Origin: a plasmid
Length of the DNA: 64,000 nucleotides
NCBI RefSeq assembly: GCF_055900595.2
Contig: NZ_JBVWEU010000002.1
Direction: 5' to 3' (one strand)
Below are positions 1 to 27,379 of this stretch, piece after piece. A program made the position numbers and the translations under genes. Each line of letters opens with the position of its first letter. Within the stretch, counting starts at the first letter, position 1. The notes below the pieces were generated by a model. That model saw nothing but the letters and a program-made list of their open reading frames with translations. It ran no database searches and had not been told where the DNA came from.

Positions 1-3000
1 TATTATCAGCCAGCAGGCTCTCTCCGTTACGGCTGCCCTGCAGGGCCACGAACTGCGCATCCCCGCTGCCTTTCACACGGCCTTCACCACTGAATCCCCG
101 CAGCCCGTTTCCGTCATCCGTGGTCAGTGGGTTCAGCCAGATACCTGCTGACTTGCCGTTACGGTCAAACGCCGGCAGTGCCACATACGGCTGCGGATAT
201 TTGCGCCCCGGTGCAATAAACCGTGCAGGACTGTCTCCCCCGGCCAGCCCCGCCTGACGAAGAACGGCACGGCCTGCCGCCACGTCCCGCAGCTCCCGCG
301 CCGTACTGAACAGCCGCTCTGCATTCATGACCTCCCGGTCCGGTTTCGGCTCAAACACATCGTGGGCCGTACCTTTCTGTACGGCATTGTTGATGGCATC
401 CGTCCAGCCCTGACGGTTATCGGTGTACACCTGCACATGCTGCTTCATACGCGACAGGGCCACGTAGGCTGACTCAAAGCCGGCCATCAGTTTCCGGTTA
501 CCTTCCGTGCCTTCAAGCGCGATGGCAAAGGTTTCACTTGCCCCCTGCGCACCGTGGGCGGTGATGGCATAAGCCAGGTCAATATGTTGCTCTGCCCGCT
601 CCTGACCGGGGCGAATCACCCGGGTCTGCTGTCCGTCCGACAGCGTGACACTGTCACCGGAAACCGCTGTCACCGTCCAGACGCTGTTGGCCACATAGCC
701 GCGCTCCCGATCACTCTTCGTGAAGCGCATCCGGTCACCGGTTCCCACCCGGATGGTGTCCGGGGTGTACAGTGTGACGCCTTCAGCCACCGCCTCCCGG
801 GGCGAAATCAGCCGCGTGTTACCTTCCGCATCCTGCAGGGTTATCAGCCCGTCATCCTTACTGATACCGGCAATCCGGTGATACGCATTATCCACCAGGA
901 CAAGTGCGTCCCGATGTGTCTCCCAGGTGGAGAGACGACGCAGTTCTCCGTCACGTATATTCGCTGTGTTCAGGACAGGCACCATGACCTGCTCTTTGCC
1001 CAGCTCACCGGCCTTTTCCCGTGCATCATGAATCATGCTGTTCAGTACGCGCCGGTCCTCATTCAGGTGTGTGACAATCAGCGTCTGCTCCCGTGCTTCC
1101 GGTGTCCTGCCGGTATAGTCGCGGACAATGGCTTCATACAGTGTCATGGGGATATCCGGGAAAGCCTCGCCTTTCAGCATCGCCTTCTGCTGCGCTTCTG
1201 CCAGTTTCGCTTCCTGGCTGTGACTGAACTCCGTCACGGAGTGCTCCGGTGCCCATGCGCCCTCCAGACGTGGCACCTGAGACGGTTTCACGCTCTCAAG
1301 CCCGGACAGTGCCCTTTCCACATCCCGGTTAATCAGGCTGTATACCGCCTCCCGCAGTTCCGGCGTCTGACGCACAATCTCCTTCATGATGACCACATCG
1401 GCAGCACTGCGCGTCTGCTGGAGACGGAAAGGCTGACCGGGCGCGATGGCCTGCAGCTGGTCCGTGTCACCGCTGGCCACAGCCCGACCGCCACCGGCCG
1501 CAATCAGGGCGTATGCCCGTGCCATGTCGGTATTGCCCACCATTGAGCTCTCATCGAGCAGGAACAGCGTGTTGCTGAAATCCGGCGTTTCTCCGCTGCG
1601 CTGCTGCATCTGCGTGTCATGCAGAAAGGACGCCAGTGTCTGTGCATCCACGCCGGCGCTGCGCATCTCCCCGACCGCACGGTGCGTGGGGCCCAGCCCA
1701 ACGACACGGGGACGCTCACTCTCCGGCAGCATGTTCACGGCTGACATCACCGCCCGGAACTGTGTGGTCTTACCCACGCCGGCATAGCCCTGCACCACCG
1801 TGAAACGGTCGGACGTTTCCAGTATCATGCGGGTGGCGGCACGCTGTCCTGATGTCAGTTTCTCCATGAGTTCGCCAGGTACTCTCTCCATCAGCGGCGT
1901 GACCGCCTCCTTACCTTCGAGAATATGGCGAAGAATGCTCTTTTCTGCCTCATACGACGCACGGGAAACCAGCAGGCCTGTGCCATAGCCTTTTGCCACA
2001 TCCACATACAGTAAATCACCGCGTTTTATCTGCGCATTGATTTCCCCTCCCAGGTCGATAAAACTGGTTCCTTCTGCAGCAAACGACTTCGCCTCTGTCA
2101 GCAGGTCCACCATGCTGAAGGCCAGGTTTTTACTTTCCAGCACAGGAAGGGCCAGATGAATAGCCTGCTGTGCCGGCGTGTGAAGCCCGGCTTTCTGCAG
2201 ACTGATAGCGGTTTCCAGCAATGTCTCACCGGCACGCGCCTTTATCTGCTCAGAAACCACCGTAAAGGAGGGATGACGGGCAAGTTTTTCCGCAGTACGG
2301 GTTTCATCCAGTGAAGAATACAGCCGGACATCACGACCGCTGCGGGCCAGACCGTTCAGGGTGGCGTTGTCCATTGCCATCTGTGTGACGGAGGCAAAAA
2401 CCTTCGCACTGTCGCTGACGGAATGCCCGGGCGTTTCCACCCAGCCGTTCTCCAGCTTCAGTGCCGTGAACGGTGAATCAGCCACAGGCAGGGTGGCCGG
2501 TTCAGCCCGCCCCGGCACAACAACCGTCATCGCATCTTCACTGACGGATGCCACCTGCAGGCGGTCACCGCCGGAGACGCGGAGTCCGGGAATTTTCCCT
2601 GTCACCCTCAGACGCTCGCCGTCTGCCACCGGCATTTTTTCCGGCCGGAACAGCGACCAGCTGCTGTCCAGAGAAGAAATACGCACCACCTGCGTTTCAC
2701 CCTGCGCATCCCGCAGGGTCAGGCTGTGACTCTGCGCCGTCACCCGGTCTATCACATAGCGGTCATGACTGCGTGTCTCCGGGTTCCACTGCTCCATCAC
2801 CATTCCCGGGCGGTACATATCCCGCAGATAACGGCTCCGGCTGTCCAGCCAGACCGGTGACAGTGCCGTCATGGTCACCTCCTGATGTCCGAGCACGCCC
2901 TGTGTTTTCAGCTCACTGCGAATGGCCTGTGTCAGTATGGCCTGTTCCCGTACCCCGCTGACCTGTGCCACGCTCTCTTCTCCGGCTTTCACGCTGGCCG

Positions 3001-4762
3001 CAAAATCTCCTGCCAGCCGGGCATAGCGGACATTACGGTCCGGTTCACTGATGATGGTGGCCGGTCGCTGTTCTCCCCCCTGCCAGCGATATGTGTTCAC
3101 CCCGGCATCCTTCATGGCCATCAGCGCACTGCCTGTACCGGTTCGCTGCCCGCTGTCGGTTATCAGGACCTGTACGTTATGACGTGCGGCACCGTCCAGC
3201 AGGGTTAACGTCTCTTTCAGGGAGAGTTTTTCGCCCTGGTCAACGATAACAGTACTGCCCGGCGTGAAGGCCATGCCTTCCAGCAACTGACGACGTCCGG
3301 TTATCAGCTCACCGGACAGCCGTTCATCCTGCTTCAGGTTCATCTGCGAGCGACGGTCAGCAGCGATAATCTGCACTTCCCGCCCCTGCTCCCGGGCCAT
3401 CATGACCAGTTCAGCCACCCGCTCACGCTGCCCGGCTGCACCGCCCTGCCCGGACACAATGGCCAGCGACGGACGGTCCTGTGCCAGAACACTGACCGCA
3501 TCGCTGTAACCAGCCGTCCGGGGGACACTTTTCTCCGGATGTACGGTCACCCGGTTCTGTTTCATGATGTCACGACTGAGTGCCCGGACGGACAGCTCAT
3601 CGAGCACATGAATTCCTGATGCGAACAGCCCCTTCTCACGGTCGAGGGGGATAAGCTGCTCACGACTGATGGTCTCATCGATACCGGCGCGTGCCCGTTC
3701 AATCACACCATTTTCCGGCGGCAGTATACCGACCGTTCTGGCCAGCACGTCCGTGTACGTAAACTGCACTTTTCGTTCACTTAATCCGGCAATCGCCTGT
3801 GTCACCGCCTGCTGCACATCCGGCCCCTCCTGTGAAACAGCCCCGGGCGCCTGCGTGCGGGTCTCCGCACGCTGATCCGCCGCGTCACGATATGCCCGGA
3901 TGTCGAACCCGGTTTCCTTCAGCGTCTGCATCCATTCAGCCATTCTGACTTCAGGATCGACGTGCTGTTTGGATTTTCGCGTATCCAGTGCCGCCACATC
4001 CCGGGATTTCAGCGAGGCATCTTCCCCGACGGCCTCCCGGATTGCCTGTGAGCGTCCGGAAAAGGCCTCCACCGGTACGCCCGGCATCTCCCACATACCG
4101 TGCTTACCCACCACTTCGGTTTCATAGCCCAGCGCCTCAACCTGCTCTTTCAGTTTTTCCCGGTAGAGCCTGCCAAAGGCAATCTGATTAGCGTACACAT
4201 TCTCAATGAACCCCGTTTTCCCCACTTTGTCACTGCTCAGTGTCTTCCATTCGCCGTTATGCTGCGTGACATTAGCCACCACCGCATGCGTGTGTAACTG
4301 TGGTTCCTGATCGCGACTGGTGTCGTGGTTAAACAGTGCCATCACCAGATTACCGGTCAGCACCGTTTCTGACTGTCCGTCCGTCATCACCCGTGTGGAG
4401 GCCAGCGCCTCCACCTGACGAACAGCAAAGTCCACGGCCTGGTTATGTGCATCAATCAGGCGCTTATCGCCACCTAACATGGCCATCATGGAGACACTTT
4501 TGGGGGCGGAGAAGGTCAGGTCGTAGCCGGGACGATGCCTGTTACTGCCATCCTGCATGCGGCTTAGATCCGCTCCGTCCGGCAGCCTTCCCTCCAGAAG
4601 ACGGGTAAAAACATCCTTATCGACACTGCCCTGCAGTCCCAGCTGTTCAGCCCCCCTGCCGGCCCAGCGTTCTCCCATGCTGCCCAGCACATAGTAATTA
4701 TCCTTGTCGGTATAATAGTTACCGGCACTTCCGGCCGATCTGACCTGCGCGATACTCATCAT
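1..4762 (-). CDS. traI: TraI relaxase/helicase, N-terminal ~1587 codons; 3' end lies beyond window start
   Basis: Not in ORF track because no stop in window. Manual reverse-complement translation from 4762 gives [27 protein letters not shown], matching my memory of the F TraI N-terminus. Frame must be open to position 2, since no stop-terminated minus ORF is reported. ATG overlaps the traD stop (ATGA at 4760-4764). Confidence 0.9.
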   Translation of the reverse strand, partial: MMSIAQVRSAGSAGNYYTDKDNYYVLGSMGERWAGRGAEQLGLQGSVDKDVFTRLLEGRLPDGADLSRMQDGSNRHRPGYDLTFSAPKSVSMMAMLGGDKRLIDAHNQAVDFAVRQVEALASTRVMTDGQSETVLTGNLVMALFNHDTSRDQEPQLHTHAVVANVTQHNGEWKTLSSDKVGKTGFIENVYANQIAFGRLYREKLKEQVEALGYETEVVGKHGMWEMPGVPVEAFSGRSQAIREAVGEDASLKSRDVAALDTRKSKQHVDPEVRMAEWMQTLKETGFDIRAYRDAADQRAETRTQAPGAVSQEGPDVQQAVTQAIAGLSERKVQFTYTDVLARTVGILPPENGVIERARAGIDETISREQLIPLDREKGLFASGIHVLDELSVRALSRDIMKQNRVTVHPEKSVPRTAGYSDAVSVLAQDRPSLAIVSGQGGAAGQRERVAELVMMAREQGREVQIIAADRRSQMNLKQDERLSGELITGRRQLLEGMAFTPGSTVIVDQGEKLSLKETLTLLDGAARHNVQVLITDSGQRTGTGSALMAMKDAGVNTYRWQGGEQRPATIISEPDRNVRYARLAGDFAASVKAGEESVAQVSGVREQAILTQAIRSELKTQGVLGHQEVTMTALSPVWLDSRSRYLRDMYRPGMVMEQWNPETRSHDRYVIDRVTAQSHSLTLRDAQGETQVVRISSLDSSWSLFRPEKMPVADGERLRVTGKIPGLRVSGGDRLQVASVSEDAMTVVVPGRAEPATLPVADSPFTALKLENGWVETPGHSVSDSAKVFASVTQMAMDNATLNGLARSGRDVRLYSSLDETRTAEKLARHPSFTVVSEQIKARAGETLLETAISLQKAGLHTPAQQAIHLALPVLESKNLAFSMVDLLTEAKSFAAEGTSFIDLGGEINAQIKRGDLLYVDVAKGYGTGLLVSRASYEAEKSILRHILEGKEAVTPLMERVPGELMEKLTSGQRAATRMILETSDRFTVVQGYAGVGKTTQFRAVMSAVNMLPESERPRVVGLGPTHRAVGEMRSAGVDAQTLASFLHDTQMQQRSGETPDFSNTLFLLDESSMVGNTDMARAYALIAAGGGRAVASGDTDQLQAIAPGQPFRLQQTRSAADVVIMKEIVRQTPELREAVYSLINRDVERALSGLESVKPSQVPRLEGAWAPEHSVTEFSHSQEAKLAEAQQKAMLKGEAFPDIPMTLYEAIVRDYTGRTPEAREQTLIVTHLNEDRRVLNSMIHDAREKAGELGKEQVMVPVLNTANIRDGELRRLSTWETHRDALVLVDNAYHRIAGISKDDGLITLQDAEGNTRLISPREAVAEGVTLYTPDTIRVGTGDRMRFTKSDRERGYVANSVWTVTAVSGDSVTLSDGQQTRVIRPGQERAEQHIDLAYAITAHGAQGASETFAIALEGTEGNRKLMAGFESAYVALSRMKQHVQVYTDNRQGWTDAINNAVQKGTAHDVFEPKPDREVMNAERLFSTARELRDVAAGRAVLRQAGLAGGDSPARFIAPGRKYPQPYVALPAFDRNGKSAGIWLNPLTTDDGNGLRGFSGEGRVKGSGDAQFVALQGSRNGESLLADN

Positions 4763-6924
4763 CAGAAATCATCTCCCGGCTCAACATCCTCCCCGCGCTC
4801 CCGGTGCACATTAATGTTCACCTCTTCACGACGCTGCATCTGCTGCTGGATGTCCGGATGATTTTCCTGTTGCCATGCCTCATAAGCGGCCATATCCACC
4901 ACTTCACCGGATTCACTGATCCCGGGTGGCAGTTGCTGTTCCATCTCTTCTTCCGGTTTCATTTTCAGCTCCTGCTCGATCCCCCCTGCCGGAACATTCA
5001 CACCTGAATCTGACTTCTTATCGTTGATGGCAGGAGACACCGGCTGTTGCGGCTGTTGCGGCTGTTCAGCCTGAGTCACGTCTTCTCCGGAAACAACTTC
5101 CGGCACATCCGGTTCGAAGAGGCTGGCCATCTGACGACCTTCTGCTTCCCTTGCGGCAAGTACGGCACTCAGACGGTTCTCCATTTCCGGGTTGATGTCA
5201 CGCGGAATAAACTCCGGAGCGACCTTCGGACGTGCCTGATATTTCAGTGAGAGTTTTACTGCCGGATACGGTCCGGGCAGGGTGACATAACAGGTCAAAT
5301 CCGGCAGAGACTGAATGTCAGAATAACTGACCAGCGTCTGGCGCTCCATATCCTTACCGGTCGATACCCCGTCACGTACCGGATCAGCACCGTAGGAGTA
5401 CTGCTCGCTGGCTTTCAGGTGCTCTTTCTCACCAATCTCACCGGCAGCGAACTCTGCAATCTTATGGCTGGGAGAACGGAAAAAGGCACGGGTGTTCATG
5501 ACGTCAAACAGCGTGGCAGCCGCTTTCTCACCGTAGATATCTTCCAGCTGGGCATAGGACTGGATACCAAACACATAACAGCCACCGAACTTACGGGCTT
5601 CCGGCAGGATCTCCACCAGGTCCGGCAGTTTGTGTAACGTGGGTAGCTCATCACAGAAAAACCACACACGACGGTTACGGTTTTCTCCCATTGCCAGCAG
5701 ACCACGAATGGCAATGGACAGCCACATGGAGATCACCGGCTTCAGGGAGGCATGGGTGTCGGCATTCGACGAGATAAACAGCCAGCCGTTTTTCTGATCT
5801 TCCCGGACACCCCGCATCCAGTCACGGATGGTAAAAGACTCACCGTTATGCTCAATCCCCTGCAGGTAACGGATGGCTTTCACGTAGTTGGTCAGCACAG
5901 CACGGATGGAAATCGCCGTTTTCTCAATTTTCTCTTCCACCAGGTTGGCCGCCGGTGAATTACGCAGGAAGGTACGCAGTTTTTCGATTTTGATGGAAAG
6001 CAGTGTGTCCACCAGTTTGCTGTAGCTGCGGTTGGGGTCATTACGCATCAGGTACGCCGCTTCCGCAAAAATGGTACGTCCTGAACCCTGCCAGAACGGG
6101 TCCTCTTTTGTGCCCATCGGGATCAGGGTATTTGCCGTATTATCAAAATCCGGCTGTGTCAGACACTCCTTCCATAAATCCCAGGCGGCACAGCGGGCAT
6201 CCAGCGGATTCAGGATCTTATCGATGGAGGGATCATAGTAACTTTTAACAAATTCCCCTGAACGGTCATAAATCACCACCATATCACCGCGCTGACGGGC
6301 GTAGTTGGCCAGACGACGGATAACTTCCGACTTACCGGCCCCGACCGTGCCGTGCAGACAGAAGTTCTGGATTTCAGAATCCCGGATAATCGGCAGGTCG
6401 CCAATCCGGATATCGGAGTCCTTGCCGTCTTTTTTCAGCATCCGGGCAACGTCTTTCGGATTGTCTGTCAGCTGACGACCACCTGTGACTTCATTTTCGC
6501 TCTGTTGTTTACCCTGACGCCCCAGAATCCAGGAGACAACAAAGAAGGTAATCAGGCAAATAACCAGTGCCACAACTGTGGCCAGAACGAATGCGGACCA
6601 TAGCTGCTCTCCGCACCAGATCATATATTTATCATGCAGTACCTGAGCAGCATTCATCCGGAAGGTTTTGCCGTAATACTGGATCTCATAGACCGGCTGG
6701 GACTTGATTAAATCCCGCATGCCTTCCAGCGTGGTACACCACCAGTAAATACAGCCGTTCACAAACGTCTGCCAGCTTATTTTTACCCATAAAACCAGAC
6801 CAACGAGTATCCAGAAAAAAATAAACAGGCAGTAAAGCATGATATTGGCGATCTGGCTGAACATGCGGATACGCATGGACGCAATCTGACCGCCCTGGGT
6901 CATATCCTTTGCGTTAAAACTCAT
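4762..6924 (-). CDS. traD: TraD type IV coupling protein (720 aa)
   Basis: ORF track. Near-identical to recalled F TraD along its length, including the Walker A (GTVGAGKS), the QQP repeat tract and the C-terminal ...EDVEPGDDF. Confidence 0.95.
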
Positions 6925-7144
6925 GATGATATTCCGAAGAAAAAAAGTTAGTCGGACTGATTATTAATGATGAAAAGATTAATAACCGTTAAATTCCGGC
7001 TTCGCCGGCAACACTTCACGGTCGCACAAAGAATTTGCACAACCGCTCAGTGTTTTCATATTTATTTCGGAAACGCCGGGGAGAAATAAAATTTATTTTA
7101 TTTCTTTCCGGGGTTGGACAACGAGCAAAGCGAGGCGTCAGTCA

Positions 7145-7167
7145 GGAGGCCGGTCAGACCAGCCTCC
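7145..7167 (-). terminator. Stem-loop (GGAGGC..GCCTCC) just downstream of traT; possible terminator/attenuator ahead of traD
   Basis: Inverted repeat ggaggccggtcagaccagcctcc seen in sequence. No clear U-run, so weak. Confidence 0.3.
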
Positions 7168-7176
7168 GGAAGATAA

Positions 7177-7908
7177 TCAGAGAATATTTGCGATTGATTT
7201 GGCCAGCTGGTCTTCGAGAACAGGCTTCGCCTCTTCAAATTTCAGGTTAACCTTGTTCGCATTTGAGACCACACGGGTCTGGTATTTATGCTGGTTACCT
7301 GTTTCAGTACTGGTCTGAATTTTCGCACCTGATGTGCCCTGACGCAGGGCGGCTACATTGTCCGTTGTCACCGTTGCCTTAGTACGCTCTGCAATCTGCA
7401 CATCCGTGATCATGGTATAGTTCACATCTTCCACCATCGCATCTGCAGCCATACCCACCAGACCGGCAGCAAGGCCCACACCGAGTGTGGCACCGGCAGA
7501 ACTGGAATTATATCCGGTGATACCGGCACCTAACGCTGCACCAACTGCTGCGCCTTCATAACCACGGTTCAGCCATCCCTGAGACTCCCGCAGATCCATC
7601 TTATCGGCCTTCAGCACATTCGCCTGAATCCAGTAGTAGGCTTTATCCGGAGAAGTCACCACCTGATACCCTTTTGCTTTCACAGCATCAGCAATTTTGC
7701 CCTGCAGCCCACTCATGTCTTTATCAGACGTGTTTTTGATCTGCAGAAATACCGTGCGTTCGCTGGCGGGTTCAAGCCAGATGGTCTCACTCATCTGAGT
7801 CTTCACCTCAAGGTTACGCTTCTTGATTGCTGTGCTCATCGCACCACACCCTGAAACGGCCAGAGTGGAACTGACCAGTGCAACCATCATCAATTTTTTT
7901 GTTTTCAT
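7177..7908 (-). CDS. traT: TraT surface-exclusion outer-membrane lipoprotein (243 aa from [21 protein letters not shown])
   Basis: ORF 7177..8007 contains the recalled TraT sequence. True start taken at the internal Met preceding the lipoprotein signal peptide. Confidence 0.93.
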
Positions 7909-7939
7909 CAAATTACCTTTATTACAAACCACAGTTTTC

Positions 7940-8455
7940 TTATCGCCTGTCATCATAGTCCTGCCAACAAGTCCCAAAAGTATTTCCTGCTGAATCAAAT
8001 CCTCCATGCATAGCTAATCCTGTTGCCGGATTAGTACGATAAAAATCCACATAATCAAAATTCACATCATCAAAATCCAGATGCAAATCTTCATTAGTTT
8101 GTTCATTTACCTGAGATTGCATCCATTCTCTTACACTTACACAACCACTAATTCGCCTTAATTCGTATAGTGTACCAATGATAAAAACCATCAGGCTTAA
8201 TAACGGAGAGAGTAAGGAAGATACTGGCATCAGTATATACCAAACGCCTTTACTGAATTTAAACTCATCCGACACATGCCGTTTTTTTCGTATTTGAGAA
8301 AATAACCATATAAACAATCCCTGCCATAGTACAATAAAGCACAGGATAAAAACTGTTTCGGCACTCCCCCAATCAGCCAGATAACAGGCAATGAACTGTA
8401 TCACCGTCACCAGAGCAATATGAGCTAAATTTTTCATTATCATCTCCCCATACAA
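7940..8455 (-). CDS. traS: TraS entry-exclusion inner-membrane protein
   Basis: Hydrophobic ~170-aa ORF in the canonical position between traG and traT. Exact start uncertain (Met1, Met5 or Met7). Confidence 0.7.
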
Positions 8456-8457
8456 TA

Positions 8458-11280
8458 TTATTGCTTGTGCTTATCCTGATACTCCTTTGCTCTTTTCATC
8501 AGTTCCTGTGGACTGTCAGCCCCGGGCATTCTTTCCTGACCCGATTTTTCTTCATTATATTTATTATTCTGAGATAATGCCTCTGTTTTATGGTGATTTT
8601 GTAGTTCAGAATACTGTCTTCCTACAATATTTTCTTCGCCACGTATGCTGCTCTGAGTATCTCCGATATTGCCTCTGTATTCTGTGACCATATTATCAAC
8701 CTGATGTTTTACATCATTACGGATATTACTGTCCTGCGTTCTTTGCTCAATAATGGCCTGATGCCCCTGATGATCAGCAATAATATCCTGGCTGCCACCC
8801 CCCGAAGGTACGCTCTCCATTCCTTTACCGATGTCCCCACGGGATTCACGCCAGGCATTATCAACACCAGGCTGCACCTGTTCCTGAACAAAAGACCACG
8901 CCATAGCCCGACGGCGTTCTGCAATCTCCGGGGAACTGGTGTTTGTCAGAATAGCTTCGGCATCCTGCGGCGCGTGTTTCATCACATACTGTGCAAACTG
9001 TTGCGACAGGTCTTCACTCATCTGCCCACTCATGCTTTCAGTACGGGATGCCATTTCAGCATATTCATGGCTGCGGGTCATATTCGTCGTGTACTGGTCG
9101 TAACTCTGTTTTGCTGAGTTCAGGGCTGCAGACAGCTGGTCCACACGGGAATCGGCATTATTGTCCGTATGGCTGCCGGATTCACTGACCTTGCGACTGG
9201 TAAAGTAATCGCTGGCCTCTTTAAAGTCTTGTGTAGCCCTGGCATCGATATCATGGCGAGCATCATGGCTGGCCCGTGAACCACTGCTGGCCTGATGCGC
9301 ATCCTCATCACTCCAGTCAATACTTGCCCGACCACCACCTCTAACACCTACGCCACCACCAACACCAAGAATTTTAGGTTTAACCCCCCATTCAGCATGA
9401 GCATCGCCATACATCCCCGCAGAACCTCTCGTACTTCTTGATGCCAGTTCTCTTGTCGCCTGCTCATTACTGATATTATGCGCCTTCGCATAGCTTTCCA
9501 CTGCGCTGCGCATACGGCTGGCCATCATGGAGTCCTGTGCACTCATCGTGCTGTCAGCACCACCGGTGACAGAATCACTGCTCCCCCGGTTAGAACCAAA
9601 CTGACTGAGCGAGTTCCAGGCACTGGCAATACTGCTGCTGAACCCATGCAGGGCGCTTTCTGCTCTGTTCGACGCCTCCCGGGCCATTTCCTGTTGTGCC
9701 GCCGCAATCTGACGCGTTGCATTGATACCGACCGGTAAACGGGACATCGCCCCGCTCGCATCCATCACCATATTACCGTCACGGGTCTGTGTGGCGGTTG
9801 CGCCACTGCCGGTCTGGTACATCATCTGACCAAACGACGTGGTGCTGTTGGTGCTCCAGCTGAATCCGTTCACGTTTTCCGTCTGCATGTTGCCGTAGGA
9901 GTAATTACCGTCAACCACACTACCTGCCGCACTGGCAGTCGGGCTGATAGCAGAGGAAGCGAAATGGCTGTACACACTGGAAAATCCGGCCCCGAGTCCC
10001 CTGACCATCATCCAGGATAATGGCGGGATCATCATGGAAAGATACCCGGCAGTGGAAGCCAGATCGGAGTATTTCAGCTGTATCTGTGAAATTTCCGAGA
10101 GCACCACCGGTGCACCATTCTGCTTCGCATAAAATGTCATGGCGCTGTTCAGAATGGCGTACAACATTGGCCATGACTGCAACCACATCAGGGCAAACAC
10201 ATAGCCTTTCAGGACGGACAGCGTCAGTTTGTTGAAGACAGCCGCCAGTACCAGAAGCGGGAAAATACCGATGGCGATCCCCGTCAGGATGGTCTGCGTC
10301 ATGGGCAGTGTCCGCATCGCCACATGACCGATGGAGACATGTGCCAGACGTTGCTTCTCCATCGATGACGTGGTGGCCAGATTCACCAGGCTGGCTGAAT
10401 CACCATTACGCGCGGCATAACTGGTGATCCCCTCCTTCAGCGCATTGATGGTGACATTCTGGCGGATGATCTGGCTGGCTGATTTACTTGAGCCATAGAA
10501 GTAACTGTAACTGTCGCCAATCAGCGTACTGAACAACAGGTTCGGATCAGGGCGTCCACCAAATAGCTGCTGGGCATAATAATGCCAGGTTTTTCCGCCA
10601 CTCTGTGTATCCAGATTCAGCTTGTCTTTCAGCGAAACCGACGCGTCCTTACAGGTCACGAAATTATTATTGCTGTCATAAACGCCCCGTAGCGGACTGG
10701 GGCGGGAAAAAATCAGCGTGTAGGGATCAGCGGAGGCCATCAGCTCCTCCAGCGTGTATTTGTGGTTCAGGTAAATATCCCCCATCACGCAGTTCTGCAC
10801 ATAATCCTGGAAAAGATTGGCGATTTCCGGATTGCGGGACAAAAAGTCGGTGCTTTTTGATACCAGTTCTGCGCCAAACAGCATCCCCGTTTTGCTGTAG
10901 GTGACACTGTCCGGTTGCGTGAAGATCATCTCGTAACTGGCCACCATTGCATGCCCGATACGGGTCGTCAGTGAAAGTGGCATCGCCAGTCCGACCGGCA
11001 CATTATCCACCCGGTGAACTTTGACCAGGTCACTGTTATCAATAATCTGCACCGATGTGCGGACATTAACCAGCAGGCTGATAAGCACAAACACGGCCAC
11101 CCAGCCCAGCAAATCCATCACGTTGTGCCGCTGTACCCACATTACGGCCACCGCGAGAACAGACAATGTGAGCGCAATTTTTTCAATGGAATCCCACGTC
11201 CGGGTCCCCATAAAGGCGGCAATGGCATTCAGGTTATTCCGCAACCACTCACCACCGGCAATCACATAAACTTCATTCAC
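8458..11280 (-). CDS. traG: TraG mating-pair stabilisation / pilus assembly protein (940 aa)
   Basis: Size and position (F TraG is ~938 aa). N-terminal polytopic membrane domain plus large periplasmic C-terminal domain. Confidence 0.93.
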   Translation of the reverse strand: MNEVYVIAGGEWLRNNLNAIAAFMGTRTWDSIEKIALTLSVLAVAVMWVQRHNVMDLLGWVAVFVLISLLVNVRTSVQIIDNSDLVKVHRVDNVPVGLAMPLSLTTRIGHAMVASYEMIFTQPDSVTYSKTGMLFGAELVSKSTDFLSRNPEIANLFQDYVQNCVMGDIYLNHKYTLEELMASADPYTLIFSRPSPLRGVYDSNNNFVTCKDASVSLKDKLNLDTQSGGKTWHYYAQQLFGGRPDPNLLFSTLIGDSYSYFYGSSKSASQIIRQNVTINALKEGITSYAARNGDSASLVNLATTSSMEKQRLAHVSIGHVAMRTLPMTQTILTGIAIGIFPLLVLAAVFNKLTLSVLKGYVFALMWLQSWPMLYAILNSAMTFYAKQNGAPVVLSEISQIQLKYSDLASTAGYLSMMIPPLSWMMVRGLGAGFSSVYSHFASSAISPTASAAGSVVDGNYSYGNMQTENVNGFSWSTNSTTSFGQMMYQTGSGATATQTRDGNMVMDASGAMSRLPVGINATRQIAAAQQEMAREASNRAESALHGFSSSIASAWNSLSQFGSNRGSSDSVTGGADSTMSAQDSMMASRMRSAVESYAKAHNISNEQATRELASRSTRGSAGMYGDAHAEWGVKPKILGVGGGVGVRGGGRASIDWSDEDAHQASSGSRASHDARHDIDARATQDFKEASDYFTSRKVSESGSHTDNNADSRVDQLSAALNSAKQSYDQYTTNMTRSHEYAEMASRTESMSGQMSEDLSQQFAQYVMKHAPQDAEAILTNTSSPEIAERRRAMAWSFVQEQVQPGVDNAWRESRGDIGKGMESVPSGGGSQDIIADHQGHQAIIEQRTQDSNIRNDVKHQVDNMVTEYRGNIGDTQSSIRGEENIVGRQYSELQNHHKTEALSQNNKYNEEKSGQERMPGADSPQELMKRAKEYQDKHKQ

Positions 11281-12653
11281 AGCGTGCTCCCTCCGAAGTG
11301 ATAGTTGTTCTGGTAACGACTGAGCATGCGGGCGGAAAGCTGCTGACGCATGTAGCTCATCTGACGATCGACGACCAGCAGCGCATCCTGCTGTACCTGC
11401 ACCTGTGACTGAAACGCCGCAATCTGCCGGGTGGCATCATTCATGTTGTCGTTAATATGTTCGATAACTGCTTCGTCATAATTTCCTGTGGCCACCATCG
11501 CCCGGGCCTGCTGTATCAGCTCCTGAATGTACTGCAGCAGGATGTCGTAACCGATATAGTCCGTCAGCTGGTAAATCATACTGTTGGAAACACCGAGCAT
11601 TTGCGGGTCAACCAGGTATTTGAAGACGGGGATGGTGGTACTGGAAATAAAGCCTTTTTCCTTGTCATCCAGAGGCGTGTCACTGACCGCCTTGTTCTGA
11701 ATGCTGGCCAGAAGTTTAGTAATCTGAGACTTCAGTGCATTATCCCGGCTGATGGTCACCGGTGTGTCTGCCACCACTTTCAGGCATTTATCAGAATCGT
11801 TGCAGTGATAAATTTTTGCTGTGCCGCCTTCCATCATGACCCGGATAATTGAGCGGTCAGTGGTTCTGGCTGACAAGGGTGTGATTTCGCCGTTAGGACC
11901 AAACACCAGTGAGCCGGTCAACGTCATCACAAACTCTTTCAGCTCTTTGTTGCCGTCAAACATTCTGTTTTTGGAAAGCGCATTCCACATGATGTTGATG
12001 TTTTTGGTCACCCGCTCCTTATCCTTGTCGCTGGCTTTATCCCTGACACTGTCAGATTTCCCGCCAACGGTACATCCCTGCCGGGAAGCCGCCCAGTCAG
12101 CAAAAATATTGCTCTCACCGGCAATGTCCTGACAGACTTTCTGCTGGGACACCTGCGTCCGGGGGAAAAGCCCGCCGATAATCCCCTGTGCCGCCTGGCA
12201 GGAACTGAGGTTCATACTGTTAATGTCGCTTGCCATTTTCTGCAGGAAGTCTTTTGCGGTTTTGATTTCCGGCACCGTTGTCTGCAGGGCAAGGTCAAAA
12301 AAGTAACCGGCAGCATTGCTCATAATCTGCTTAACAAAACGCTGCAGCTGCTCGCCATTAATAAAACTGAACGAGCCGAGATAAGCGTCGATGCCGCCAC
12401 ATCCGGCATTGATATCCGGCAGCGTCATGGAAATCAGCTGAACATTTTTGACCTGAGTACGGGCATACAGGGAGCCACCGTAAGCATAACCGGCGGCCTG
12501 CCCCTGCCAGACGCCCGGCTGTGTGGTATTGGAGGCGAAGCCCAGCTTGTTAAAGAACTGATTCATGTCGCTGTTCACATCCGCTGACGCTGCGGGTGTG
12601 ACCGTCAGTAAAGCAGCACAAAGAACCAGAAGAGGTTTAATGCGTGGCATCAT
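11277..12653 (-). CDS. traH: TraH pilus assembly protein (458 aa, signal peptide)
   Basis: Size identical to F TraH. Synteny traH then traG, with 4-nt overlap. Confidence 0.93.
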   Translation of the reverse strand: MMPRIKPLLVLCAALLTVTPAASADVNSDMNQFFNKLGFASNTTQPGVWQGQAAGYAYGGSLYARTQVKNVQLISMTLPDINAGCGGIDAYLGSFSFINGEQLQRFVKQIMSNAAGYFFDLALQTTVPEIKTAKDFLQKMASDINSMNLSSCQAAQGIIGGLFPRTQVSQQKVCQDIAGESNIFADWAASRQGCTVGGKSDSVRDKASDKDKERVTKNINIMWNALSKNRMFDGNKELKEFVMTLTGSLVFGPNGEITPLSARTTDRSIIRVMMEGGTAKIYHCNDSDKCLKVVADTPVTISRDNALKSQITKLLASIQNKAVSDTPLDDKEKGFISSTTIPVFKYLVDPQMLGVSNSMIYQLTDYIGYDILLQYIQELIQQARAMVATGNYDEAVIEHINDNMNDATRQIAAFQSQVQVQQDALLVVDRQMSYMRQQLSARMLSRYQNNYHFGGSTL

Positions 12654-13045
12654 TCTTGCCCTCCCTTAATTTGTTCTCCCGGCGCATACGACATTTCAGC
12701 AGGAATATCCCGATATTTCCGTCCAGTCCTGCGGCTGTAATATATTTCAGACACCGAAATCCATCCCACAATTGCCCCCACAAAAAACACAACAGAAACA
12801 GAAAAGGTAAGGCACAGCGAAACGACAATTTCTACAGGGCTGGCGGGATAAAAAAGCCCCTGATGGATAAAGGGGATATTCAGGCTGACGATTATTCCCG
12901 TCGCGATGCCGGATATTCCGGCAATGAGTAACACCACCTGCTTATTTCGCACCTTTTTTTCCTCCGTACATCTGCAGAACGGTATCCATCCGCGCCATAA
13001 AACCGGCGGCATCCGTTGCCCCCTGTAAAAGCGGTAATGCCTCAA
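12650..13045 (-). CDS. trbF: Small membrane protein in the TrbF/TrbJ position (131-aa ORF)
   Basis: Position between trbB and traH. Size close to F TrbF (~126 aa). Overlaps the 3' end of trbB. No separate trbJ ORF of 60 aa or more was seen. Confidence 0.5.
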   Translation of the reverse strand: MRHYRFYRGQRMPPVLWRGWIPFCRCTEEKKVRNKQVVLLIAGISGIATGIIVSLNIPFIHQGLFYPASPVEIVVSLCLTFSVSVVFFVGAIVGWISVSEIYYSRRTGRKYRDIPAEMSYAPGEQIKGGQE

Positions 13046-13487
13046 GCGTGTTGACGTTGACCAGGAAGGTGGTCGGTGTGGCCACCGGGATATTCGGGAA
13101 GAAGGTCTGCATCACGTCCGGTGGCACCGGTAATGCTTCCGGAAAGGCGGTATCCCCCTGACCATCCAGGGTGTAGGGAAAAACGGAAAAGCCGTACTGC
13201 TGTGCCAACTGCTTCAGTACCGGGTCAAACTGGTGACAGTAAGGGCAATGCCCCTGCATAAACAGCACCACCTTCCAGTCGGCCAGGTTAACCTGCCTGC
13301 CGTTGCTGAGGCGGAACCAGCGGGGGGCCGGCTTTTCTGTCCTGGCTGACGTGTCTGCTGCCGGTTGTGCAGGCTGCGCGGCCATACCCTGCGGATTCCA
13401 GAGTCGCTCTATTTCATCCCGGGTGGAGGCCTGCACACCTGTGGCCATCATCAACAAAATGACCGGCAGTAAGTTAGTGAGAGACAT
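12942..13487 (-). CDS. trbB: TrbB periplasmic thioredoxin-fold disulfide isomerase (181 aa)
   Basis: CxxC motif (GHCPYCHQ), signal peptide, size equals F TrbB. Confidence 0.87.
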   Translation of the reverse strand: MSLTNLLPVILLMMATGVQASTRDEIERLWNPQGMAAQPAQPAADTSARTEKPAPRWFRLSNGRQVNLADWKVVLFMQGHCPYCHQFDPVLKQLAQQYGFSVFPYTLDGQGDTAFPEALPVPPDVMQTFFPNIPVATPTTFLVNVNTLEALPLLQGATDAAGFMARMDTVLQMYGGKKGAK

Positions 13488-13758
13488 GTCCGCCCTCCTG
13501 CTGCTCTGCCATCATGGCCTGTTGCCTGGCTTCCAGTGCCTCACGCTCTTCCCGGCTGACACGGGCAATCCATGCATCCAGCACCTGGTATGCGCCGAAC
13601 AGCACAAGGATGGCCGCAATCAACTCCGCCAGAAAAAAAGCCATCCAGGGTTTGCTGTAAACAAGACGGGCGACGATATGAAACCAGACACCCAGGGAAA
13701 ATACCCACATTCCCGTAATATCAAGCCGGGGTAAAGAGAATCTGCGTTTACTTATCAT
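13474..13758 (-). CDS. traQ: TraQ pilin chaperone (94 aa)
   Basis: Size equals F TraQ. Membrane helix plus charged C-terminus. Synteny. Confidence 0.85.
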   Translation of the reverse strand: MISKRRFSLPRLDITGMWVFSLGVWFHIVARLVYSKPWMAFFLAELIAAILVLFGAYQVLDAWIARVSREEREALEARQQAMMAEQQEGGHVSH

Positions 13759-13876
13759 GTTAAACTCCGGTTATTATTTACATGAGAGTATTTATGTCTG
13801 TAATATTCGCGTTTGTGTGATATTAATCAGATCAACCTCATTATTTTGTATGGTTTTTATTACCGTTTTATATGAC

Positions 13877-14224
13877 TTAGCCTGTCATAAGCCCCCTTAT
13901 AAAAAACCACATCACTCCGGACCATACTGATGACAACATAATACAGATAAATATTCTTCTGAACCCGTCGAAGCTCGTAACGTTCGGTAATGAGCCAATA
14001 ACCATTGGAACAACCATTGCTGCGCCCTGATTCATAATTGCACCACACAGAAACCAGAGACTGGCAGTCAGCACATATAAACACGCGATATTAATAACAA
14101 GGAAAACCAGTGAGCTCAGGAGAAACATTTTCCTGTCATTACGCTCAGAAAAGAAATAACCGGCAATAATGACAAATATTAACAGAACAACACCTGTAAA
14201 CAGTTTCAAATAATCTTCACTCAT
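13877..14224 (-). CDS. trbA: TrbA inner-membrane protein (115 aa)
   Basis: Size equals F TrbA. Hydrophobic. Position between traF and traQ. Confidence 0.75.
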   Translation of the reverse strand: MSEDYLKLFTGVVLLIFVIIAGYFFSERNDRKMFLLSSLVFLVINIACLYVLTASLWFLCGAIMNQGAAMVVPMVIGSLPNVTSFDGFRRIFICIMLSSVWSGVMWFFIRGLMTG

Positions 14225-14239
14225 AAATCAAATCCGCGA

Positions 14240-14983
14240 TTAAAAATTGGGTTTAAAATCTTCAGAAACGTTCAGGAATTGTTTTGCCAGGTCGTCCTGC
14301 GAAATAAAGCCGTATGATAACGGGCGAACACTGCCCTGTTTCGGGTCAACCAGCATCATGGCCGGGAAATATTTCACGCCGAGGCGCTGCGCCTGCCCCT
14401 GGTCAGTCCGGGAATCCGGCAACAGCGGATTAATCACACCATCCACGGAAACGGGAATAACACTCAGACCATAGGTATCCCTGAAGCCATTAATGACCTG
14501 CGCCAGCTGCCCGTCGATGGGGTCCTGCCCCCGGTAAAAGAACATGATGCCGTAGTGTTCAGCCAGTTTCGCAATGGCCTGTCGCTGCTGCACCTGGTCT
14601 GCCGCCAGCTGGTTCCGGACCGTGCCGTTGTAATGGCTGTACTGCAGGTTATAGTCCAGTTCGGGATGCGCCAGCATGGCTTTTTTGGCGCTCATGGTGA
14701 AAAGCCCGGCCTGCTGAGTCCAGTAATTCTGCAGCCGGAAATATTTCACAAAATTATCCACGCCGGGATACAGAATGGCTTCGTACAGCGCCCGCTTTGT
14801 TGCCGTCTGCAGTGCGGCCAGTTTCTGCATAATGTCCGGCTCCTGACGGGGGGCTGCAGGTACTGGTTTATTTTCTTTTTCCTTCGGATTTATTTTCTCG
14901 TTATACCACTGCCAGCCTGCATCTTTTCCTGACGCCGGAAAAATAAAGCAGCAGAGTAACAGTGGCAGTAATGCTTTATTCAT
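14240..14983 (-). CDS. traF: TraF pilus assembly protein, thioredoxin-like fold (247 aa from MNKALLPLLL)
   Basis: ORF 14240..15013. Start trimmed to the Met giving the F TraF length and a signal peptide. Confidence 0.9.
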   Translation of the reverse strand: MNKALLPLLLCCFIFPASGKDAGWQWYNEKINPKEKENKPVPAAPRQEPDIMQKLAALQTATKRALYEAILYPGVDNFVKYFRLQNYWTQQAGLFTMSAKKAMLAHPELDYNLQYSHYNGTVRNQLAADQVQQRQAIAKLAEHYGIMFFYRGQDPIDGQLAQVINGFRDTYGLSVIPVSVDGVINPLLPDSRTDQGQAQRLGVKYFPAMMLVDPKQGSVRPLSYGFISQDDLAKQFLNVSEDFKPNF

Positions 14984-15203
14984 CTTCATTCCTTTCATCA
15001 CTTTTTCTTTCATCAGGTTTCTGCAGGTCAGTCAGGGCAGAAAAACAAAAATACAGAATAAACAGGAGCACACCGGAGTAAAAAATAACGAAAGCAGCAG
15101 CAAGTATCTCACCTGCAGTGGTTTCTTTTACCGTATCCCACGACCAGATAATTACCGGGGAAATGACAATCGCTGTAATCAAAAGCCGGATGCGTATTCT
15201 CAT
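14976..15203 (-). CDS. trbE: TrbE small membrane protein, probably 5'-truncated (75 aa versus ~86 aa in F)
   Basis: Hydrophobic small ORF overlapping the traF start. Its ATG directly abuts the IS-type terminal motif at 15203, and an in-frame stop lies 4 codons upstream. Confidence 0.6.
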   Translation of the reverse strand: MRIRIRLLITAIVISPVIIWSWDTVKETTAGEILAAAFVIFYSGVLLFILYFCFSALTDLQKPDERKSDERNEDE

Positions 15204-15290
15204 GAAAGGAGATCACTCAATAACTTCCATCGAGATCGGGTAATAACGGCGTTTTTCAAGGTAGTTGTCGCCTTTTGTAATAAAATTACG

Positions 15291-16196
15291 TTATGCCGCT
15301 TCTTTTTCTGGATTCAGATAAACTGCCTGAATGAGTTCCCAGTCACGCAACTGTTTGCTCCAGCGCTCAGGATGACGTTTGCGAGCTTCGCGATAAACTT
15401 TTTTTCTGGCTTCCAGTATTTGTGCGTCAATTCCGCGATGGCGTTCATCCGGAGTAACATACTTAATACCGCTGTGCTTGTGTTCCAGGTTGTACCATCG
15501 CGTGAACTTGCTTAACCAACTTCTGGCTTCATCTATGGTTCGAAAACCATTCTCTGGCCACCATGGACAATACTTAATCGTCCGGAAGAGCGATTCGGAA
15601 TAAGGGTTATCATTGCTGACCCGGGGACGGGAATAAGAACTTAATACGCCAAGCGCGTACATTTTTGCCAGTAACGTACAACTGCGCATTGGTCCTCCGT
15701 TATCAGAATGAAGCACGAGATTGCGGGATGAACATTTTTCATTCCATACAGCACGTTGAAGCAGTTCTGCCGCATACTGCCCAGATTCTTTCGTAAATAC
15801 TTCGGCAGCAATAATTTTTCGGCTATAAATATCGACGATCATATAGAGATAAAAATGCTGCCCCTTAACCCACGATGGGATATAACTAATATCCCAGCTC
15901 CACACCTGGTTGGGGGCTACAGCTTTGAGTACTTCAGGCCGCTTATATTGGTGTTCACGGGTTCTCCTTGTCAGTTGGTTAGCTGATTTTAATACGCGAT
16001 AAAAAGTTGATTCTGACGCGATATAAACCCCTCTGTCGGCAAGAGTCGGAACAATAATATTCGGAGACAATGATGCAAACTCCGGAGAATTGCATACATC
16101 AAGTATTCTTAATCTTTCTGTTTCTGACAGTTTATTCCCCGGGGTACGCCTTGATGCACCTGGTCTCTGATCTGTATGAACCACACCACCCTGCAT
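15291..16196 (-). CDS. IS3-family transposase OrfB (DDE/rve integrase core, 301 aa)
   Basis: Motifs WSWDISYIP, HSDNGGPM and YSESLFRTIKY (E-x7-K) are typical of IS3-family / retroviral-integrase catalytic domains. Confidence 0.85.
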   Translation of the reverse strand: MQGGVVHTDQRPGASRRTPGNKLSETERLRILDVCNSPEFASLSPNIIVPTLADRGVYIASESTFYRVLKSANQLTRRTREHQYKRPEVLKAVAPNQVWSWDISYIPSWVKGQHFYLYMIVDIYSRKIIAAEVFTKESGQYAAELLQRAVWNEKCSSRNLVLHSDNGGPMRSCTLLAKMYALGVLSSYSRPRVSNDNPYSESLFRTIKYCPWWPENGFRTIDEARSWLSKFTRWYNLEHKHSGIKYVTPDERHRGIDAQILEARKKVYREARKRHPERWSKQLRDWELIQAVYLNPEKEAA

Positions 16197-16315
16197 CCAA
16201 CGTTGAAGTGTTCTGACTGAAATACCAATACACTGGCAGGCTTGTGTTTTTCTCGCTCCTGAACTGACAGCCTCGCTGACCAGATTAATAATCTTCTGCC
16301 GCTCTGGAAGAGGAG

Positions 16316-16861
16316 TCAGCCTTCCTCGCTGTTGTCCCAGAGGGCATTGAACTTTTCCCTTAACATCAAAAGAGCAGCTGCTTCCGCCAGAGCTTTATCT
16401 TTACGGAGAAGTTCTTTTTCCAGTTCCCGTAACTGGGTCTTTGCTTCGCGTAATTCTTTATCAGCACGGCGACTTTCTGCCATTTTCATTTCATGAGCCT
16501 GAATGGATATAGCTCTCCATTCTTTAACTTGCTCAACAAATAACCCCATTCTCCGACAATAATCAGCCAGTTCCATTTCAGATAATGTTGCAGTTTCAAT
16601 TACAACAGAAAATCGTCGCTCCGGTGTCCATTCATTTCCATCGACAGAAGATATTTTTTCATTTTCAGGTAACAGGCCTTGTTGCACCAGTTCAAGTCTC
16701 CATCTTGCTATTACTGAAGGGCTCAGGTCCAGTTTACGAGCAATATGCCGTATGGACCAACTATAAGGTGGTAATAACCAGGTAACACCTTGTTCTTTTA
16801 TATCAATTGGTACTGCATGTGCGGGCATAGTCTCTCTCCTGTGTAAAAATCTAGGCGACAA
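16316..16861 (-). CDS. IS3-family transposase OrfA (HTH DNA-binding, leucine-zipper-like C-terminus)
   Basis: Immediately upstream of orfB in a different frame. The 120-nt gap between orfA stop and the first orfB ATG may indicate a frameshift-fusion arrangement or decay. Confidence 0.7.
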   Translation of the reverse strand: MSPRFLHRRETMPAHAVPIDIKEQGVTWLLPPYSWSIRHIARKLDLSPSVIARWRLELVQQGLLPENEKISSVDGNEWTPERRFSVVIETATLSEMELADYCRRMGLFVEQVKEWRAISIQAHEMKMAESRRADKELREAKTQLRELEKELLRKDKALAEAAALLMLREKFNALWDNSEEG

Positions 16862-17020
16862 CTATGCTGACACAGGGGGATAACATTTGAACAGATCGCT
16901 GAATAACATCGATGGAGATCACTTTTGACTCATTTTGTTATTCAGTGATCTCCATCAATGTTATTGGAACTTCACAGGTGTGTTGATCTGTATCTTTTGC
17001 CATTCCGGTAAAGGATACCT

Positions 17021-18562: not shown

Positions 18563-18573
18563 TACGGGATCCA

Positions 18574-19323
18574 ATGATGAATCATCTTTACGAACAACTG
18601 ACCGCACTTAAACTCACCGGCTTCCGTGATGCGCTTAAAAAGCAACTTGCTCAGCCGGGCACATACCAGGAGCTGGGCTTCGAAGAACGCCTGTCATTAC
18701 TGACAGCAGAAGAACTAACCTGCCGTGAAAACAGGAAGGCAGAGCGTCTGATCAAACATGCACGGTTCAGACTTAATGCTGAGTTATCAAAGCTGGATTA
18801 TCGTAACAATAGAGGGCTGGACAGGGCCCTCATCCGTTCACTCAGTCAGGGAAACTGGTTAACCCTGAAACAAAATATTTTACTGACCGGGGCCACCGGC
18901 AGCGGTAAAACGTTCCTGGCATGTGCACTTGGTCATAATGCCTGCCGACAGGGATACAAGGTCTACTATTATCGCCTTAAAGCGCTGATGGAACAGTGCT
19001 ATCAGGGGCATGCTGATGGAAGATACAGCAAACTTTTGACCAGGCTGAATAATAGCGATCTGCTGCTTCTGGATGACTGGGGGCTGGAACCTCTCTCATC
19101 AGAACAGCGTAGCGACCTGCTGGAAATAGTGGATCTGATGTACCAACGAGGCTCAATCATCGTAGTGAGCCAGTTGCCGGTGGAAAACTGGTACAAAATG
19201 ATCGGAGACTCCACACATGCGGATGCCATCCTAGATCGACTGGTTCATGGCAGTATCAAGATCGAACTTAAAGGAGAATCAATGCGGAAAATACAATCTC
19301 CGTTGACCGAAGGAGATCAGTGA
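18574..19323 (+). CDS. istB: IS21-family helper ATPase IstB (249 aa)
   Basis: Walker A LTGATGSGKTF and Walker B LLLLDDWG. DnaC-like AAA+ protein as in IS21 IstB. Confidence 0.9.
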   Translation: MMNHLYEQLTALKLTGFRDALKKQLAQPGTYQELGFEERLSLLTAEELTCRENRKAERLIKHARFRLNAELSKLDYRNNRGLDRALIRSLSQGNWLTLKQNILLTGATGSGKTFLACALGHNACRQGYKVYYYRLKALMEQCYQGHADGRYSKLLTRLNNSDLLLLDDWGLEPLSSEQRSDLLEIVDLMYQRGSIIVVSQLPVENWYKMIGDSTHADAILDRLVHGSIKIELKGESMRKIQSPLTEGDQ

Positions 19324-21929: not shown

Positions 21930-21934
21930 TCACC

Positions 21935-27300: not shown

Positions 27301-27379
27301 TCTTTATTACCGCCTGTTAAATATTAATCACTGAATATCCCTTCAGTTAACTTATGAGGTCATAAAACACTGCAGATTC

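Follow-up and report, generated by a model that had tools for sequence, protein, structure and literature searches.

The junction of traD and traI raises the question of whether the contact between their stop and start codons ties synthesis of the relaxase to that of the coupling protein, and whether it bears on the effect of an insertion sequence located upstream. The tra operon occupies the minus strand of the window (the whole stretch of 64,000 nt analyzed here), and its gene order from traM to traI is collinear with that of F and p135-3, save for an IS composite in trbE. By tblastn, the product of the upstream gene is 98.6% identical to F TraD across all 717 residues, and a near-identical gene in NCBI is also named traD. 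Residues 1-330 of the downstream product match PDB entries 1P4D and 5N8O (N-terminal relaxase domain) from residue 1, with E about 1e-213. Direct reading and translation of the minus strand give ...GAT GAT TTC TGA TGA TGA GTA TCG... at the junction, and as two long conserved genes are joined by this overlap, it is no chance match. The gene names, the coordinates (traD TGA 4762-4764, traI ATG 4760-4762) and the shared base in the initial annotation were all correct, but the motif ATGA in its title was not: the stop precedes the start, which makes the junction a TGATG with a 1-nt overlap rather than a 4-nt ATGA. The letters ATGA are present at 4762..4759, but the TGA among them is not the traD stop. 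The overlap is a real, ordinary and unremarkable arrangement that is already annotated and very common in bacterial operons, -1 and -4 being by far the commonest distances between same-strand prokaryotic genes (PMC10666635; PMC6728339). The triple in-frame TGA (TGATGATGA) might be read as a fail-safe stop by design, but this was rejected: the repetition arises from Met-Met and does not occur where codon 2 of traI is TTG or CTG.

Table 1. Features of the traD-traI junction, other overlapping tra junctions and the IS composite; gene pairs are written in the order of transcription.
Feature	Position	Strand	Basis
TGATG: traD stop TGA 4764..4762 and traI start ATG 4762..4760, A4762 common to both	4760..4764	-	direct reading, translation; NCBI annotation of relatives
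traD, type IV coupling protein, 720 aa	4762..6924	-	ORF list; 98.6% identical to F TraD
traI, relaxase/helicase, first 1587 codons, no stop; runs off window start	1..4762	-	97.7% identical to F TraI residues 1-1587
Second ATG, Met2 of TraI, sole plausible alternative start	4757..4759	-	sequence
In-frame TGA closing the traI frame three codons before the first ATG	4769..4771	-	upstream frame translates ...AGR*FL then M
Shine-Dalgarno-like GGGAG within traD Pro-Gly-Asp codons, 10 nt before the first ATG	4773..4777	-	-7.4 kcal/mol duplex with 16S rRNA 3' end
Last 8 traD codons, D-V-E-P-G-D-D-F: TraM-binding tail and predicted traI ribosome-binding site	4765..4788	-	translation; PMC7555446
traH>traG, GTGA, 4-nt overlap; identical in F	11277..11280	-	junction table
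trbJ>traH, ATGATG at trbJ stop: 1-nt overlap (F-homologous start 12650) or 4-nt (start 12653)	12648..12653	-	
trbC>traN, ATGA, 4-nt overlap	21288..21291	-	junction table
traW>traU, ATGA, 4-nt overlap	22924..22927	-	junction table
trbI>traW, ATGA, 4-nt overlap	23553..23556	-	junction table
traC>trbI, ATGA, 4-nt overlap	23936..23939	-	junction table
trbD>traV, ATGA, 4-nt overlap	28717..28720	-	junction table
traK>traB, TGATG, 1-nt overlap; identical in F	31029..31033	-	junction table
4218-bp IS composite splitting trbE	15191..19408	.	split trbE in tblastn; breakpoints vs uninterrupted p135-3
IS21-family ISEc12-like element	istA 17021..18562; istB 18574..19323	+	Pfam, NCBIfam matches
IS3-family element nested in ISEc12-like element	about 15245..16880; ORFs 16861..16316, 16196..15291	-	Pfam, NCBIfam

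The direct junction is widespread among related plasmids. NCBI annotations of the seven relatives inspected, namely the near-identical p135-3 and six divergent plasmids, all contain the 1-nt overlap, and TGATG is identical in the six divergent ones (70-93% DNA identity), which include Klebsiella and Edwardsiella plasmids. The two genes are contiguous in 3689 of the best 5000 plasmid matches. Judged from its sequence, the window thus holds the majority F-like form of the junction. Plasmids lacking a vapBC insert (pKF3-70, pKpQIL-571, p135-3 and thousands of IncF plasmids) show the same gene order and the same TGATG, preceded at 7-9 nt by a G-rich site. They do not differ in substance from the window, except at the second traI codon, an ATG in the window that is replaced by TTG or CTG in some of them; the length of traD also varies among the insert-free relatives because of a Gln/Pro repeat.

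For the F plasmid itself, comparison of junctions as the initial annotation had proposed confirmed the type of every other tra junction but not of this one. In F (NC_002483) traD and traI are kept apart by a 715-bp segment that bears vapBC in the opposite orientation, whereas the window has no insert; F-type inserts at this position were found in 1178 PLSDB records. The textbook plasmid is therefore the exception at the traD-traI junction and not its model, which corrects a natural assumption. traD of F still ends in TGATG, as in the window, but the ATG there opens a 239-codon frame, trbH, that ends in ATGA on the traI start. In F-type plasmids the trbH frame spans the vapBC cassette, from the traD stop to the traI start.

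The best account, which we hold with good confidence, is a normal ancestral-type traD-traI junction of an F-like (MOBF12/MPF-F) plasmid, with traI starting at the first ATG and likely translated by termination-reinitiation. On the mRNA the motif reads UGAUG, and ribosomes ending traD would most likely stay on the message and restart on the overlapping traI AUG, aided by the GGGAG inside the last traD codons, so that TraI synthesis would be tied to TraD synthesis. The junction has the traits of coupled stop-start pairs, namely genes on the same strand, a 1-nt overlap and a Shine-Dalgarno (SD) site in the 3' end of the upstream gene. The -1 (UGAUG) and -4 (AUGA) pairs of Huber et al. 2019/2023, translated by termination-reinitiation, are alike in these respects. 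Of five native overlapping gene pairs examined in E. coli, all with 4-nt overlaps, four proved to be coupled (PMC6728339). No experiment on the traD-traI pair turned up in the literature covered by our searches; we infer both a probable link between traD and traI translation through the overlap and the degree of that link. Classical E. coli examples of termination-reinitiation are trpE-trpD and trpB-trpA.

For the SD-like site, a G-rich sequence was found at the matching position in all six relatives (-7.4 to -10.3 kcal/mol), at a distance of 7-9 nt from the first ATG by the 8-mer measure in the window and the relatives. The site at the end of traD is moderate and its 10-nt spacing exceeds the optimum; GGGAG at -7.4 kcal/mol is weaker than the -8.4 kcal/mol cut-off used for a 'strong SD' (PMC6728339). 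The codons that carry it appear to serve twice, as a predicted ribosome-binding site for traI and as the tail through which, according to a review, TraD Asp710-Phe717 binds the TraM tetramerization domain (PMC7555446); a comparison of the C-terminal 60 aa of TraD with PDB sequences gave no match. The 130-nt junction RNA had no structure above shuffled controls (-33.8 versus a shuffled mean of -36.3 kcal/mol, z = +0.74), and coupling through the unmasking of an occluded ribosome-binding site was accordingly rejected. An Rfam scan of the whole window placed no element at the junction, with only the traJ 5'UTR/FinP, AS-traI, AS-traG and sok elements found elsewhere, and a simple promoter/terminator scan detected no minus-strand promoter-like site in 4500..8600, with fewer sites than in shuffles, an outcome that carries no weight for or against a promoter of traD or traI. 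As no structured RNA bars direct ribosome binding at the internal SD site, coupling may be partial.

The same observations leave some room for a rather unlikely alternative, in which the overlap reflects gene packing only and traI ribosomes bind their own SD site de novo, independently of traD translation. The GGGAG is available for this purpose without an occluding RNA structure, and bioBF, the remaining one of the five tested E. coli overlapping pairs, initiated de novo (PMC6728339). Moreover, F-type plasmids function with traD and traI separated; as F conjugates with the two genes 715 bp apart, direct abutment is not essential. However, coupling prevailed among the tested E. coli pairs, TGATG is invariant in the relatives while the flanking codons diverge, and the lineages with a vapBC insert keep an open frame from the traD stop to the traI start. 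Under termination-reinitiation, traD and traI would form one expression unit, and blocking traD translation near its end would likely lower TraI.

The open frame across the insert suggests a further, unlikely proposition: that traD-traI coupling is under real selection, that trbH is a translational relay and not itself a protein-coding gene, and that the window retains the ancestral direct link. The vapBC cassette with the antisense trbH frame occurs in F, pSLT-like, E. albertii and Shigella plasmids and in an Edwardsiella plasmid (73% DNA identity); the trbH ATG overlaps the traD TGA, a presumed relic of the window-type TGATG, and the trbH TGA overlaps the traI ATG (ATGA). When vapBC was resampled synonymously, the probability of an open trbH frame per lineage was 0.03-0.09 under tra codon usage and 0.21-0.26 under that of vapBC itself, and the matching antisense frame was free of stops in three of eight vapBC homologues located elsewhere. 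F and pSLT are not independent for this test, since nearly all at-risk codons are common to both. If true, the relay would provide a function for an orphan reading frame of F and a natural case of selection keeping translational coupling across an inserted cassette.

A different reading concerns the traI start codon. If the second ATG (4759..4757) were the true start of traI, no nucleotide would be common to the functional stop and start codons; this ATG directly follows the first in frame, and the window alone cannot tell them apart. It is nevertheless very unlikely. Codon 2 is ATG, TTG or CTG in the six relatives, so the second ATG is not conserved as a start, while the first is invariant; the SD spacing would become 13 nt; and every solved TraI construct and every NCBI annotation inspected uses the first ATG. 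The in-frame TGA rules out any start further upstream, and between this stop and the first ATG there is no canonical start codon. Past the second ATG, the frame offers no candidate before Val25 and Met29, both downstream of the catalytic residues Tyr16/Tyr17. TraI chains in PDB entries 1P4D, 2A0I, 2Q7T and 5N8O all open with MMSIAQV, and N-terminal sequencing of F helicase I by Bradshaw et al. in 1990 reportedly agreed with Met-Met-Ser. In addition, tblastn matches down to 76% protein identity begin at residue 1, and traD is annotated across their first codon. The traI start is the first ATG (4762..4760), giving MMSIAQV..., and the original placement of the start at the overlapping codon, with none downstream, is borne out by conservation, NCBI annotations and PDB N-termini. 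The junction is of modest import; it settles which codon starts traI on this plasmid. That some ribosomes slip -1 at GAU UUC UGA (tRNA-Phe shifting from UUC onto UUU while the stop occupies the A site) to make a TraD-TraI fusion can practically be dismissed: traI does lie in the -1 frame of traD, U UUC permits re-pairing on UUU and the post-slip frame is open (UUU CUG AUG AUG...), but relatives do not preserve the slippery context (they carry C AUC UGA or C UUC UGA), the junction has neither a stimulatory RNA structure nor an Rfam element, and we know of no TraD-TraI product of roughly 270 kDa.

For the remaining tra genes, overlaps occur at no fewer than 14 of 29 tabulated junctions, nine of them of the -1 or -4 form. 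The initial annotation saw the same tight coupling at five other pairs. All five do overlap, but only traK>traB has the form seen at traD-traI, and the other four are 4-nt overlaps; two of the pairs, cited as traU/traW and trbI/traC, were also given against the direction of transcription, the real order being traW>traU and traC>trbI. Three further junctions of the -1/-4 type were absent from that list (trbD>traV, trbI>traW and trbJ>traH).

These overlaps had been offered as predictors of polarity from an upstream IS insertion. The insertion is real, but its link to the overlaps is weak. The composite has the termini TGCGTATT...AATACGCA and is flanked by a 5-bp direct repeat, CCGGA, at 15186..15190 and 19409..19413; in PLSDB its left junction is intact in no record and its right junction in one, only as two joined pieces. 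It lies about 10.4 kb upstream of the traD-traI junction, with five non-overlapping junctions between (traF>trbA, 15 nt; trbA>traQ, 118; traG>traS, 14; traS>traT, 31; traT>traD, 252). Because of this distance and these gaps the traD/traI overlap says little on IS polarity and is no help in predicting the effect of the distant insertion in trbE. Polarity of IS elements is mainly transcriptional and, irrespective of junction type, extends over every downstream gene as far as the next promoter. Translational coupling works only between genes that overlap or are separated by a very short gap (PMC10666635), and so no translational effect of the IS could reach traI by this route. The sole junction where coupling bears on the insertion is trbE>traF, an 8-nt overlap also missing from the earlier list. 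An IS can even drive, rather than silence, downstream tra genes, as in pED208 (PMC8406263).

The transfer (tra) region of this IncF plasmid lies on the minus strand of the window, with traM to traI in F order and mostly 90-100% identical to the F plasmid (NC_002483) when F Tra proteins were used as tblastn queries. Positions 1..53141 are collinear with the E. coli plasmid p135-3 (NZ_CP080263) at 99.97-100% identity, except that a repeat in traD differs in length by 36 nt and that trbE carries a 4.2-kb insertion. The collinearity stops at 53141, and the following ~10.9 kb (53142-64000) derive from something else. At 720 aa, TraD of the window compares with 717 aa for the F protein and 732 aa for that of p135-3, which is otherwise near-identical; the 36-nt difference is located in a Gln/Pro-rich repeat of the C-terminal region.

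Features of the tra region and neighboring elements (window positions)
Feature	Position	Strand	Remark
AS-traI (antisense RNA within traI)	1837-1913	+	Rfam match above gathering score
ATG2	4759..4757	-	in-frame ATG directly following ATG1
traI	starts at ATG1, 4762..4760	-	1587 codons up to window edge
traD	6924..4762	-	stop TGA at 4764..4762
TGA in traI frame	4771..4769	-	three codons before ATG1
traD repeat difference	~5041-5066	-	36 nt
traS	7940-8443	-	Pfam TraS match
AS-traG	10476-10561	+	Rfam match above gathering score
trbJ>traH junction	12648-12653	-	classed as 1-nt overlap; ambiguous
trbE insert	15191..19408		4218 bp; 15186-19413 with direct repeats
Nested IS3-family element	~15245-16880		co-oriented with tra
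trbD	28717-29031	-	104 aa
FinP with traJ 5' UTR	34229-34340		Rfam match above gathering score
sok	37955-38126	-	Rfam match above gathering score

At the traD/traI junction the minus strand reads ...GAT GAT TTC TGA TGA TGA GTA TCG CGC..., and the traD stop and traI start have a single nucleotide in common, A4762, exactly where the initial annotation had placed it; the motif is TGATG with a 1-nt overlap, not the 4-nt ATGA given in its title. An upstream in-frame TGA closes the traI frame, so ATG1 is the first canonical start, and the in-frame candidates beyond ATG2 (Val25 and Met29) both lie past Tyr16/Tyr17 of TraI, the relaxase's catalytic tyrosines. TGATG is kept in all six relatives at 70-93% DNA identity (pKF3-70, a K. 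pneumoniae plasmid, pKpQIL-571, a K. variicola plasmid, an Edwardsiella hoshinae plasmid and pBone2IncF), each annotated with a 1-nt overlap, while codon 2 varies between ATG, TTG and CTG, which identifies ATG1 as the conserved start. Upstream lies a G-rich Shine-Dalgarno-like site (GGGAG, -7.4 kcal/mol in the window and up to -10.3 in the relatives), 10 nt from ATG1 and 13 nt from ATG2. The N-terminal sequence in TraI structures 1P4D, 2A0I, 2Q7T and 5N8O is MMSIAQV, and tblastn matches as low as 76% protein identity begin at residue 1, with annotated traD covering the first codon. The overlap is real but an ordinary one, annotated in public records before.

No other distance between same-strand genes comes close in frequency to overlaps of -1 and -4 nt, and translational coupling was observed in four of five native overlapping E. 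coli pairs tested but is lost once the gap reaches ~20 nt (PMC6728339, PMC10666635). We infer that traD and traI translation is coupled; a literature search found no direct test at this junction. RNA structure at the junction did not exceed that of shuffled controls (z = +0.74), and an Rfam scan gave no family matches there. Any coupling would therefore proceed via termination-reinitiation helped by the internal Shine-Dalgarno site rather than by hairpin unmasking, and some independent traI initiation may also occur. This site sits within the Pro-Gly-Asp codons of the TraD tail DVEPGDDF, which, as Asp710-Phe717, is given as the TraM-binding peptide in a review (PMC7555446), so that these 24 nt have two functions.

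At least 14 of the 29 tra junctions overlap, compared with about 15% of same-strand prokaryotic gene pairs (PMC6728339). The 4-nt form ATGA is found at trbD>traV, traC>trbI, trbI>traW, traW>traU and trbC>traN, with GTGA at traH>traG, and longer overlaps occur at traE>traK (14), traB>traP (11), traP>trbD (8), traQ>trbB (14) and trbB>trbJ (71). Of five junctions previously said to repeat the traD/traI coupling, only traK>traB has the same 1-nt TGATG form, the other four do not, and two had been named against the direction of transcription ('traU/traW' and 'trbI/traC'). The trbJ stop is surrounded by ATGATG, a mirror of the traD/traI ambiguity: traH may start at 12653, giving 458 aa and a 4-nt ATGA overlap, or at 12650, giving 457 aa and a 1-nt overlap, the latter being annotated in F and p135-3.

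The insert that splits trbE has the termini TGCGTATT...AATACGCA and ends in perfect terminal inverted repeats of 8 bp; on both sides it is bordered by the 5-bp direct repeat CCGGA (target duplication). It is a composite: an IS21-family ISEc12-like element, whose istA and istB genes are on the plus strand, carries a nested IS3-family element close to its left end. Among 72,556 PLSDB plasmids none has the exact left junction, the right one has a single match, only as two joined pieces, and the insertion looks recent. It had been proposed that the overlaps help to predict polarity of this insertion. However, it lies ~10.4 kb upstream of traD/traI in the direction of transcription, with five gapped junctions (14-252 nt) in between, so no translational effect can reach traD/traI, and IS polarity is expected to be transcriptional, independent of junction type; the proposal is unsupported. 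The junction directly touched is trbE>traF. An IS is also able to drive tra expression, for example in pED208 (PMC8406263), and the nested, tra-oriented IS3-family genes could read out into traF.

All other listed junction types are identical in F, but traD/traI differs: instead of the direct overlap, the two genes have 715 bp between them, in which the toxin-antitoxin pair vapBC is encoded on the opposite strand. A 240-nt junction probe occurs in one piece in 3689 of the best 5000 PLSDB matches, the F-type insert is present in 1178 PLSDB records (among them 800 Escherichia, 222 Salmonella and 134 Shigella), and trbH was found in only 8% of 256 MOBF12 plasmids (Fernandez-Lopez et al., PMC5102898); the window thus represents the common state and F the exception. 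The contiguous arrangement is presumably ancestral. Elsewhere in the region, the 104-aa trbD of the window, which overlaps traV, contrasts with a 63-aa trbD plus trbG in F, and F TrbG as query had no match anywhere in the window. The traS allele has no similarity to F TraS detectable by tblastn, yet Pfam TraS matches it, a combination suggestive of a different entry-exclusion type.

In F, the ATG overlapping the traD TGA (TGATG) is the start of the old 'trbH', a frame of 239 codons (L002, the F plasmid, 27958..28677), which runs antisense through vapC and vapB, its final TGA overlapping the traI ATG (ATGA). A pSLT-like plasmid (86% identical) shares this arrangement, as do copies from E. albertii, E. 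coli and Shigella. An Edwardsiella anguillarum plasmid (NZ_CP094314), whose identity is only 73%, has it too, and its frame is 272 codons long (+99 nt, 33 codons). The traD gene of this last plasmid breaks into two frames around codon 501 (L029 2493-2505), through either a frameshift or a mistake in the assembly, and the PLSDB gene table does not list it. The trbH frame is open in 9 of 10 copies inspected, the broken one belonging to an S. Choleraesuis plasmid without annotated traI. It lies codon-on-codon antisense to vapC and stays open while vapC avoids TTA, CTA and TCA codons; the at-risk codons are nearly all common to F and pSLT, and 6 of 9 are different between F and Edwardsiella. Synonymous-codon resampling gave a per-lineage probability of an open frame of 0.03-0.09 with tra codon usage and 0.21-0.26 with vapBC's own usage. 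Of eight vapBC homologues located elsewhere than between traD and traI, three are free of stops in this frame and five, both copies upstream of traD among them, have 1-3. A 2025 preprint describes trbH as an antisense transcript of unknown function. It may be a relay frame by which the coupling of traD to traI survives the vapBC insert; the pattern fits, the statistics being only suggestive. A second vapBC lineage, 77% identical to the F copy in DNA and 87% in protein and with two stops in the antisense frame, is located between a DUF2726 gene and the traD start in E. coli plasmids CP057153 and NZ_CP010124, and this different site indicates that the distal tra region has acquired vapBC on at least two occasions.
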